DNA of 33,628 nt from sequence record KF322032; one strand, written 5' to 3'. The stretch is from Enterobacteria phage fiAA91-ss. A program made the position numbers. Position 1 is the first letter of the stretch; every line of letters begins with the position of its first letter. Shown piece after piece: positions 6,001 to 9,000 of this stretch.

Positions 6001-9000
6001 CATGATGACGCTGATTATTCCGCGAAAGGAGGCTCCTGTATCCGGTGAGGGTACGGTGGTCATCCCGCAACCGGCAGGCGACGAGCCGGTGATTAAAAAC
6101 ACGTTCTTTTTTCCCGATATCGACCCGAAGCGCGTCCGGGAACGTATGCGCCTTGAGCAGACCGTCGCCCCCGCCCGTCTGCGTGAGGCCATCAAGTCAG
6201 GCATGGCGGAGACGAATGCGGAGCTGTACGAGTACCGCGAACAGAAAATTGCCGCCGGTTTTACACGTCTGGCGGACGTCCCGGCGGACGACATCGACGG
6301 TGAAAGCATCAAAGTTTTTTACTACGAGCGCGCCGTGTGTGCGATGGCGACCGCGTCACTTTATGAACGTTATCGCGGTGTGGATGCCAGTGCGAAAGGC
6401 GACAAGAAGGCCGACAGCATTGACAGCACCATTGATGAGCTGTGGCGGGATATGCGCTGGGCAGTGGCGCGCATCCAGGACAAGCCGCGCTGCATCGTGA
6501 GTCAAATCTGATGAAGACCTTTGCGCTACAGGGCGACACGCTCGACGCCATCTGTGTCCGGTATTACGGGCGCACTGAGGGCGTGGTCGAGGCCGTGCTC
6601 GCCGCAAATCCGGGACTGGCTGAACTGGGTGCGGTGCTGCCGCACGGCACCGCCGTCGAACTGCCCGACGTTCAGACCGCGCCCGTGGCTGAAACTGTCA
6701 ATCTGTGGGAGTAACGCATGACAGCAGAAGAAAAAAGCGTCCTGTCGCTTTTCATGATTGGGGTGCTGATTGTTGTCGGCAAGGTGCTTGCCGGTGGTGA
6801 ACCCATCACCCCGCGTCTGTTTATCGGGCGCATGTTGCTCGGTGGTTTTGTCTCGATGGTTGCCGGTGTTGTTCTGGTGCAGTTTCCTGACCTGTCACTG
6901 CCTGCGGTGTGCGGTATCGGCTCCATGCTGGGTATCGCCGGTTATCAGGTGATTGAGATTGCCATTCAGCGCCGCTTTAAGGGCAGGGGGAAACAGTAAT
7001 GCCGGTAATTAACACGCATCAGAATATCGCCGCCTTTCTCGACATGCTGGCCGTGTCCGAAGGGACGGCAAACCATCCGCTGACGAAAAACCGGGGCTAT
7101 GACGTGATAGTCACCGGACTGGACGGGAAGCCGGAAATTTTCACCGACTACAGTGACCACCCGTTCGCACATGGCCGACCGGCGAAGGTGTTTAACCGTC
7201 GCGGTGAAAAATCCACGGCCTCCGGTCGCTATCAGCAGCTTTACCTGTTCTGGCCGCATTACCGCAAACAGCTTGCCCTGCCGGATTTCAGTCCGTTGTC
7301 ACAGGACAGACTTGCCATTCAGTTGATCCGCGAACGCGGTGCACTGGATGACATCCGGGCGGGACGCATTGAGCGCGCCATTTCACGCTGTCGCAATATC
7401 TGGGCGTCCCTGCCGGGTGCCGGTTACGGTCAGCGTGAGCATTCACTGGAAAAACTGGTCACCGTCTGGCGTACCGCTGGCGGCGTACCGGCTTAAACGG
7501 AGTAAACACCATGAAGAAATTATCCCTTTCACTGATGCTGAACGTGTCGCTGGCGCTGATGCTGGCACTGTCCCTGATTTACCCGCAGAGCGTGGCCGTC
7601 AATTTTGTCGCCACCTGGGCGATTCTGGCGACGGTTATCTGTGTGGTTGCCGGTGGTGTCGGCGTGTATGCCACTGAGTATGTGCTGGAACGCTACGGGC
7701 GGGAGCTGCCGCCTGAATCGCTGGCCGTGAAGATTGTCACGTCGCTGTTTTTGCAGCCGGTGCCGTGGCGCAGACGGGCGGCGGCTCTGGTGGTGATGGT
7801 GGCGACGTTTATCTCGCTGGTCGCTGCCGGGTGGATTTTTACCGCGCTGATTTACCTCGTGGCGTCGGTGTTCTTCCGGCTGATACGTACGGCCTGTCGT
7901 CAGCGTTTTGAGGGGCGGGAACCATGTCAAAGCTGATGATTGTGATGGTTGTGTTGTTATCGCTGGCGGTGGCGGGGCTGTTTCTGGCGAAGCATGAAAA
8001 CGCCAGCCTGCGCGCCTCGCTGGACAGGGTGAACAACGTCGCCAGTGAACAGCAGACGACCATCACCATGCTGAAAAATCAGCTTCATGTTGCCCTCACC
8101 AGGGCAGACAAAAACGAGCTGGCGCAGGTGGCACTGCGTCAGGAACTGGAGAACGCCGCGAAGCGTGAAGCACAGCGCGAGAAAACCATCACGAGGTTAC
8201 TTAATGAAAACGAAGATTTTCGCCGCTGGTATGGTGCTGACCTGCCTGATGCTGTGCGCCGGTTGCACCAGCGCCCCGCCTGCACTGACGCCAGTGATTG
8301 TCCACAACGCCTGCCCGAAAGTGAGCCTTTGCCCGATGCCGGGCAGTGACCCGCAGAAGAACGGCGATTTAAGTGCCGATATCCGGCAGCTTGAGAACGC
8401 GCTGGCACGTTGTGCCAGCCAGGTAAAAATGATTAAACACTGTCAGGACGAAAATGATGCTCAAACCCGACAGCCTGCGCAGGGCGCTGACTGATGCCGT
8501 CACGGTGCTGAAAACTAACCCCGAGATGCTGCGGATATTCGTGGATAACGGGAGTATTGCCTCCACACTGGCGACGTCTATGTCATTCGAAAAGCGTTAC
8601 ACGCTCAATGTGATTGTGACCGACTTTACCGGTGATTTTGACCTGCTCATTGTGCCGGTGCTGGCGTGGCTGCGGGAAAATCAGCCCGACATCATGACCA
8701 CCGACGAAGGCCAGAAAAAGGGCTTCACGTTTTATGCAGACATCAACAATGACAGCAGCTTTGATATCAGCATCAGCCTGATGCTGACCGAGCGCACGCT
8801 GGTCAGTGAGGTTGACGGCGCGCTGCATGTGAAGAATATCCCGGAACCTTCGCCGCCGGAGCCGGTTACCCGACCGATGGAGCTGTATATCAATGGCGAA
8901 CTGGTGAGCAAGTGGGATGAATGAGTTTAAGCGTTTTGAAGACCGGCTGACCGGACTGATTGAATCGCTGTCACCGTCAGGGCGTCGGCGACTGAGTGCC

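Follow-up and report, generated by a model that had tools for sequence, protein, structure and literature searches.

The window analysed here is the whole 33,628-nucleotide (nt) stretch of Enterobacteria phage fiAA91-ss DNA in sequence record KF322032, and the element in question is the reading frame at 8204..8494 on its plus strand. This frame is very probably lysC, the gene for the outer-membrane spanin (o-spanin) subunit of a P2-like phage. Its coding sequence (CDS) runs from an ATG at 8204 to a TGA at 8492-8494, the stop included, and specifies a precursor of 96 amino acids (aa) that opens MKTKIFAAGMVLTCLMLCAGCTSAPP and reads in full MKTKIFAAGMVLTCLMLCAGCTSAPPALTPVIVHNACPKVSLCPMPGSDPQKNGDLSADIRQLENALARCASQVKMIKHCQDENDAQTRQPAQGAD. 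The finding is already known, having been published at identical coordinates. SpaninDB (Kongari et al. 2018, supplement of PMC6139136) lists a fiAA91-ss CDS at 8204..8494 as a putative o-spanin of identical sequence. The same row gives the Shine-Dalgarno (SD) sequence as 'agaaaaccatcacGAGGTtactta', the lipobox as LCAG and the family as P2, with a periplasmic domain of 76 aa and 4 periplasmic cysteines, and the (periplasmic) sequence of its LysB entry is identical to the LysB found here (PMC6139136).

The lysC frame is +1 relative to lysB (7924..8349, plus strand; TIGR03495, PHROG 89), which encodes the 141-aa inner-membrane spanin (i-spanin) partner. The two genes share 146 nt, a further 145 nt of lysC lie past the lysB stop, and the 3′ end of lysC reaches 41 nt into the tail gene R (8454-8924). 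LysC matched the NCBIfam model NF038368 ('Rz1-like lysis system protein LysC', the P2_Rz1 equivalog) with 127.3 bits against a cutoff of 27 over model positions 1-85 of 85, and Pfam PF23793 (LysC) with 54.8 bits against a cutoff of 27 over positions 1-69 of 69. LysB matched the equivalog TIGR03495 ('Rz-like lysis system protein LysB') with 171.5 bits, the cutoff being 92.75. In PHROGs, both LysC (PHROG 456) and LysB (PHROG 89) are labelled 'Rz-like spanin'. Over a 621-nt region the DNA is 98.1% identical to that of phage Wphi, whose record has lysC at 8203-8493. A search of a large protein collection returned 192 LysC homologs, and the 351-nt lysC region is present, and annotated lysC, in 1609 of 5426 complete E. 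coli genomes (~30%). A first-pass annotation of this DNA had placed a lysC lipoprotein gene at 8204-8494, embedded in the +1 frame of lysB. The family matches, the SpaninDB entry and the frame conservation described below bear out the gene, and the +1 frame stands. The word 'embedded' does not, since with 145 nt beyond lysB the gene is 'overlapped'.

Conservation of the lysC frame and its lipoprotein signal

The regions compared were those of Wphi, L-413C, 186, PSP3, EtG, Midge, SEN1, Klebsiella ST147-VIM1phi7.1 and a Yersinia enterocolitica phage. The first-pass annotation had named a lack of conservation in related phages as grounds for rejection; the comparison found the frame conserved: the whole frame of 96-98 codons is open, and its product including the signal peptide is conserved, in all phages translated, down to ~72% nt identity. 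The relatives at ~72-74% nt identity are 186, PSP3, EtG, Midge, SEN1 and ST147-VIM1phi7.1. The same 146-nt overlap of lysB and lysC was present in 8 of the 9 compared phages.

The distribution of variable sites was examined in each part of the region. Where lysC is the only gene (8350..8453, plus strand), variable sites at lysC codon positions 1, 2 and 3 number 9/35, 8/34 and 28/35. Third positions are thus variable at 28 of 35 sites against 17 of 69 for the others (Fisher p = 7.7e-8). The 146-nt dual-coding zone (8204..8349, plus strand) encodes the C-terminus of LysB and the LysC signal and linker in two frames. Across its columns 8204-8346, variation is seen at 44 of 143 sites, compared with 161 of 265 in the part coding for lysB only (p = 9e-9), and no wobble position dominates. 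Such a halving of variability is expected if both frames are under selection. In the LysB protein, 31 of the 48 C-terminal residues in the overlap are invariant as against 32 of 93 in the remainder. Third positions of the resident gene are variable at 74 of 88 sites in the lysB-only part and at 19 of 22 in the R-only part. The tail of lysC overlapping the start of R (residues 84-96; 8454..8494, plus strand) is poorly conserved, with 3 of 13 residues invariant, and variability across this overlap tracks the R wobble position (8/12). As judged from the aligned sequences, purifying selection acts in the lysC frame.

The N-terminus of the precursor has the features of a lipoprotein signal. The predicted signal peptide (residues 1-20; 8204..8263, plus strand) comprises an MKTK n-region with Lys2 and Lys4, a hydrophobic core and the lipobox residues L-C-A-G; residues 5-20 are uncharged and hydrophobic, with a mean Kyte-Doolittle value of 2.2. 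The lipobox reads L17-C18-A19-G20-C21. Cys21 (codon 8264..8266, plus strand) is predicted to carry the lipid and to be residue 1 of the mature protein; neither C21 nor T22 varies in an alignment of 29 sequences. Lipobox counts were made on the 107 of 120 homolog cluster representatives that include the site. The pattern L-C-[AVT]-[GAS] followed by Cys was found in ~100 of these 107, Thr stands at +2 in all 107, and Cys at -3 (window 8255-8266, L-C-A-G before the Cys) in ~104. In 66 of the 120 representatives, 15-24 aa with a K/R n-region precede the Cys, the number being exactly 20 in 65. The putative lipoprotein-type signal with lipobox LCAGC, claimed at the outset for the +1 frame of lysB, is present and conserved. 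In E. coli, Lol sorting sends a lipoprotein to the outer membrane when the residue after the lipidated Cys is not Asp; since the +2 residue is Thr22, an outer-membrane destination would be expected for LysC.

The Cys at -3, and possibly also the internal Met10 and Met16 codons that pipelines choose as starts, could be functional: they might set how fast the protein is lipidated or cleaved, provide an alternative site for acylation or give rise to a non-exported isoform. This appears very unlikely. Its sole backing is conservation, in a region also constrained by the lysB frame. Were these residues functional, the timing of lysis would be affected.

Start codon, mature protein and proposed function of LysC

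The start signals of lysC are written into lysB. The SD sequence GAGG (8194..8197, plus strand) lies in the lysB Thr-Arg codons (ACG AGG) and precedes the ATG by 6 nt. Of 10 sequences, 9 retain AGG, a rare Arg codon, at the site that supplies it, and in all 10 the lysB Asn/Asp codon that supplies the 'AT' of the ATG ends in T (NAT). Adjacent synonymous lysB sites do vary (ACC/ACG/ACT, ATC/ATA, CTT/CTG/CTC). M1 of LysC never varies among 34 full-length homologs, and conservation of K2 reaches at least 90%. Because the start signals fall on conserved synonymous sites of lysB, and M1 and K2 are kept, 8204 is well supported and is the best-supported of the candidate starts. The longest open reading frame (ORF) in the lysC frame begins at 8087 and would give 135 aa. 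In-frame stops lie directly before the lysC ATG in Wphi and 4 codons before it in 186, PSP3, Midge and SEN1, so the 8087 extension is not conserved; the earlier statement that the 8087-8494 ORF begins upstream of the real start is confirmed by these stops.

Two other placements of the start were weighed, with lysC itself taken as real. Initiation upstream, at the ATG at 8087 (135 aa) or at a GTG at 8165, would agree with the frame being open from 8087 in the window and with the N-terminal extensions seen in 3 of the 120 cluster representatives. It is nevertheless exceedingly unlikely in view of the in-frame stops of the relatives, and the extended database proteins inspected resemble frameshift or fusion products. 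Before 8204, moreover, variability tracks only the lysB wobble position (the 74 of 88 sites given above). The signal peptide would sit 39 residues inside the extended protein, and the match to NF038368 opens at residue 43 of the 135-aa form. A start downstream of 8204, whether at 8231 (87 aa), at 8249 (81 aa) or deeper in the frame (57 or 52 aa), has been adopted in several places: the NCBI pipeline PGAP puts the start at 8231 on identical DNA, fewer than 10 residues precede the lipobox Cys in 35 of the 120 representatives, and a 52-aa 'o-spanin' stands in four phage records, including the recent curated one of Midge. However, the shorter forms lack the charged n-region, and in those of 81, 57 and 52 aa the hydrophobic core is largely or wholly missing, or the lipobox is absent, so that export and lipidation would not be possible. 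The SD spacing fits 8204, the first two residues of the 96-aa form are conserved as described, and this form is the one used by P2, Wphi, 186, PSP3 and SpaninDB. A downstream start is thus very unlikely, although minor internal initiation at the downstream codons may occur.

With the start at 8204, the mature protein can be divided into a linker and a helix. The Pro-rich extended linker (residues 22-50; 8267..8353, plus strand) contains 7 prolines, out of 8 in the 76 residues of mature LysC, together with the conserved Cys37 and Cys43. It is followed by a predicted long alpha-helix (residues 56-88; 8369..8467, plus strand) with conserved Cys70 and Cys80. Residues C37, C43, P44, M45, P46, S48, P50, the block G54-R61, C70 and C80 are invariant in the 29-sequence alignment; those in the helix region are D55, L56, S57, D59, I60, R61, L63, L67, C70, A71, K78, C80 and Q81. 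An AlphaFold2 model was built from 34 sequences. Its overall confidence is low (mean predicted local distance difference test score, pLDDT, 66.8; predicted template modelling score, pTM, 0.33), and only the confident helix and the unstructured linker were used. The model gives a helix at 6-20, within the signal peptide, an unstructured Pro-rich segment of low pLDDT at 21-49, and a confident helix at 56-88, with mean pLDDT over 10-residue blocks of 92 (61-70), 94 (71-80) and 82 (81-90). The description of the periplasmic part as Pro-rich, made in the first-pass annotation, consequently holds for the linker 22-50 and fails for the C-terminal half, which is confidently predicted to be helical. 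The helix is probably the region of LysB contact and of oligomerisation. LysB carries an N-terminal transmembrane helix at residues 4-22 and periplasmic Cys120 and Cys126, as read from hydropathy and cysteine positions. The periplasmic cysteines open to intermolecular disulfides are therefore C37, C43, C70 and C80 of LysC and C120 and C126 of LysB, in agreement with the SpaninDB count of 4 + 2.

The following course of events is proposed. LysC would be translated from its own GAGG and ATG within lysB, in the +1 frame, and the 96-aa precursor would be exported, lipid-modified on Cys21 and cleaved after Gly20 by signal peptidase II. With Thr rather than Asp at +2, the mature protein would be sorted to the inner leaflet of the outer membrane. 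From there the Pro-rich linker and the C-terminal helix may project into the periplasm, where they would bind the periplasmic domain of LysB, itself anchored in the inner membrane, to form a complex that would span the periplasm. Once holin Y and endolysin K have removed the peptidoglycan, this complex would fuse the outer with the inner membrane, leading to virion release. Lipidation, sorting, complex formation, cysteine disulfides and membrane fusion are attributed to LysC by analogy with what is published on P2 LysB/LysC and lambda Rz/Rz1. P2 LysB and LysC are said to be needed for disruption of the outer membrane and to complement lambda Rz/Rz1 nulls (Markov et al. 2004).

Several points weigh against the identification of 8204-8494 as an o-spanin gene of this kind. 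The start chosen by the NCBI pipeline on the identical sequence is 8231, giving 87 aa. The lipobox fails both PROSITE PS51257 and the DOLOP pattern [LVI][ASTVI][GAS]C, owing to the Cys at -3; this failure was not taken as a refutation, since the clade as a whole retains the lipobox with this Cys and SpaninDB records it. Processing by signal peptidase II is presumed from conservation and the published catalogue. A profile search of the Protein Data Bank gave no solved structure for the LysC family, the best match (E = 0.52) being meaningless, and we know of no experiment on LysC of fiAA91-ss.

The region could, at the extreme, be a chance out-of-frame ORF in lysB and R with a lipobox-like motif and no protein made. 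The probability of this is practically negligible, but the motif by itself does not argue against it. When the whole window was scanned for lipobox-like N-termini (1101 start codons, six frames, ORFs of at least 40 aa), 8 distinct loci were obtained and 6 of them were spurious out-of-frame ORFs. The lipobox-like pattern alone is no better than chance, and since it is frequent among spurious ORFs it was not relied on by itself; as stated, the motif of LysC is rejected by PROSITE and DOLOP in their strict form. What tells against a chance ORF is the third-position bias in the lysC frame where lysC is the sole gene (p = 7.7e-8), the 192 homologs with invariant cysteines, the matches to curated equivalog models, and the conservation of the SD and ATG on synonymous lysB sites. 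A protein may be made and yet act as a lysis-timing regulator or holin rather than as an outer-membrane spanin. Legacy labels point that way ('lysis control protein', 'lysis regulatory protein' or 'holin' in the records of Wphi, PSP3, ST147-VIM1phi7.1 and several Escherichia phages), but no transmembrane segment is left once the signal is cleaved, an Rz-like i-spanin gene is its overlapped partner, and the present curated names are spanin or Rz1-like. LysB/LysC are treated as equivalents of Rz/Rz1 in PMC6139136 and PMC3091744. A regulator or holin is accordingly highly unlikely, and the o-spanin assignment is preferred.

Public records of lysC and other features of the window

In records of identical or near-identical DNA, lysC is given as 96, 87, 81 or 52-57 aa, or no gene is given. 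The 96-aa form is held in the records of Wphi, 186 and PSP3. A 52-aa fragment that begins MPGSDP, with neither signal nor lipobox, is annotated in ST147-VIM1phi7.1, EtG, Midge and SEN1, and no lysC CDS is annotated in L-413C and vB_YenM_06.16-2. For a prophage copy in E. coli with 100% identity, PGAP uses the 87-aa start, equivalent to 8231, and in many other records the start is equivalent to 8249 (81 aa). SpaninDB marks lysC of fiAA91-ss as 'not annotated' in the deposited record at that time, and the same survey counted, among its genomes, 196 o-spanins that had gone unidentified and 64 with a wrong start, the bias of gene callers against overlapping genes being blamed (Kongari et al., PMC6139136). 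The deposited fiAA91-ss record apparently lacked lysC. The warning that lysC is easily missed by ORF callers was thus justified, but not the main reason offered for it, the over-long 8087 ORF: records mostly omit the gene or start it too far downstream, and of the 120 cluster representatives only 3 are over-extended, as against 35 in which the lipobox Cys is preceded by fewer than 10 residues and a usable signal peptide is missing. PHROG 952, a profile of 62 positions, appears to be built from truncated lysC calls.

The finding has little significance for biology, lysC having been a textbook 'overlapped' o-spanin since 2004-2007. Its practical value is in annotation, because a signal peptide that could take the protein to the outer membrane is present in the 96-aa form alone. 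In automated calls of spanins, lipoproteins or lysis cassettes in P2-like prophages, the start should be corrected to the equivalent of 8204.

The remaining genes of the cassette all lie on the plus strand. They are the holin gene Y (6718-6999; PF04550, 143.6 bits), the endolysin gene K (6999-7496; PHROG 90, endolysin), lysA, which encodes a lysA-like membrane protein (7511-7936; equivalent Wphi annotation, NCBIfam DNZ54_00345 family), and, beyond lysC, the tail-completion gene R (8454-8924; PF06891, 153.7 bits). Y, K, lysA, lysB, lysC and R are annotated in Wphi in the same order and geometry. R begins with two adjacent ATGs (8454-8459, MMLKPD...), the second of which, equivalent to 8457, is annotated in Wphi and L-413C; the overlap of lysC with R is 41 or 38 nt according to the start chosen. 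The lysA-like protein (7511-7936) falls in PHROG 162, labelled 'endolysin', and RefSeq phage records carry the same label. This looks like the propagated mislabelling of an antiholin-like protein.

Three further regions of the window were noted. A three-gene operon resembling cytolethal distending toxin (cdt) lies on the minus strand at 30877-33019 (CDtoxinA/C and Exo_endo_phos domains), as phage cargo close to the right end of the genome. Its middle gene encodes an Exo_endo_phos (CdtB-like) nuclease of 269 aa; the genes on either side encode CDtoxinA/C proteins, one of 258 aa and the other of 181 aa. The N-terminus of the latter resembles a canonical lipobox (LISG before the Cys). An IS21-family element region (24349-26758) contains an istA-like gene (24553-25725; rve and Mu-transposase C domains) and an istB-like gene (25722-26522; PF01695, 302 bits), and a cox-like ORF is split there into an N-terminal part (24349-24471) and a C-terminal part (26570-26758). 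Similarity to other P2-like phages ends at 24444. A 368-aa DUF3800 protein (14571-15677, minus strand) matched the PADLOC candidate defence model PDC-S51 with 350 bits. Its gene runs opposite to the flanking tail genes and occupies what we take to be the position where P2 carries Z/fun.

Comparison with known spanins

In a two-component spanin of the 'overlapped' type the o-spanin gene starts within the i-spanin gene and ends beyond it, P2 LysB/LysC being the paradigm, and lambda Rz1 has the 'embedded' architecture (PMC6139136). The lysC gene of fiAA91-ss, in the +1 frame with 146 nt shared and 145 nt beyond lysB, is an overlapped one. P2 lysC begins in the +1 frame inside lysB, its stop codon lies out of frame in R, and LysB and LysC are Rz/Rz1-like (PMC3091744, citing Markov et al. 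2004). The comparison with P2 lysC that had been suggested at the outset gives the same 96-aa length, the same +1 start in lysB and the same stop in R. P2 LysC/LysB, and also those of Wphi, 186 (Orf28) and PSP3 (gp12), belong to this family and share these properties, and the P2-type cassette order Y-K-lysA-lysB-lysC-R is common to fiAA91-ss. LysC of fiAA91-ss differs from that of Wphi by a few substitutions, for example M10, T13, P25 and L28, and shows no difference in kind. The difference between fiAA91-ss and phages of the P2/Wphi type lies in the cargo, namely the cdt operon and the IS21 element in cox.

The overlapped lysB/lysC arrangement is also that of the Burkholderia P2-like phages KS14 and KL3 and of the o-spanins of Fels-2, HP1 and HP2 (PMC3091744; SpaninDB). 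This group shares with LysC of fiAA91-ss a predicted signal peptidase II site between residues 20 and 21, ~10% proline and a pattern of four periplasmic Cys, the last seen in the SpaninDB sequences. Lipoboxes differ within it, the residues before the Cys being LSG in Fels-2, LLA in HP2 and LCA in KS14; Fels-2 and HP2, the more distant relatives, have canonical lipoboxes, whereas the P2/186 clade keeps the -3 Cys (L-C-A-G before the Cys).

The likeness to lambda Rz1/Rz is one of presumed role: a small Pro-containing outer-membrane lipoprotein with periplasmic cysteines, encoded in the +1 frame of the gene of its inner-membrane partner. Lambda Rz1 has ~40 mature residues and is shorter than LysC; its sole periplasmic Cys is C29, whereas mature LysC has 76 aa, 4 periplasmic Cys and a predicted helix of 33 residues. 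The Rz1 gene lies wholly inside Rz, whereas half of lysC lies beyond lysB. No sequence relationship of LysC to lambda Rz1 was found, the Pfam scan (E <= 0.01) having returned PF23793 only. The Rz/Rz1-type overlapping architecture ascribed to this locus by the first-pass annotation is hence correct as to an overlapped spanin pair and incorrect if sequence kinship with lambda Rz1 is meant. LysC resembles Rz1 in role, and stands outside the Rz1 family and its architecture class.

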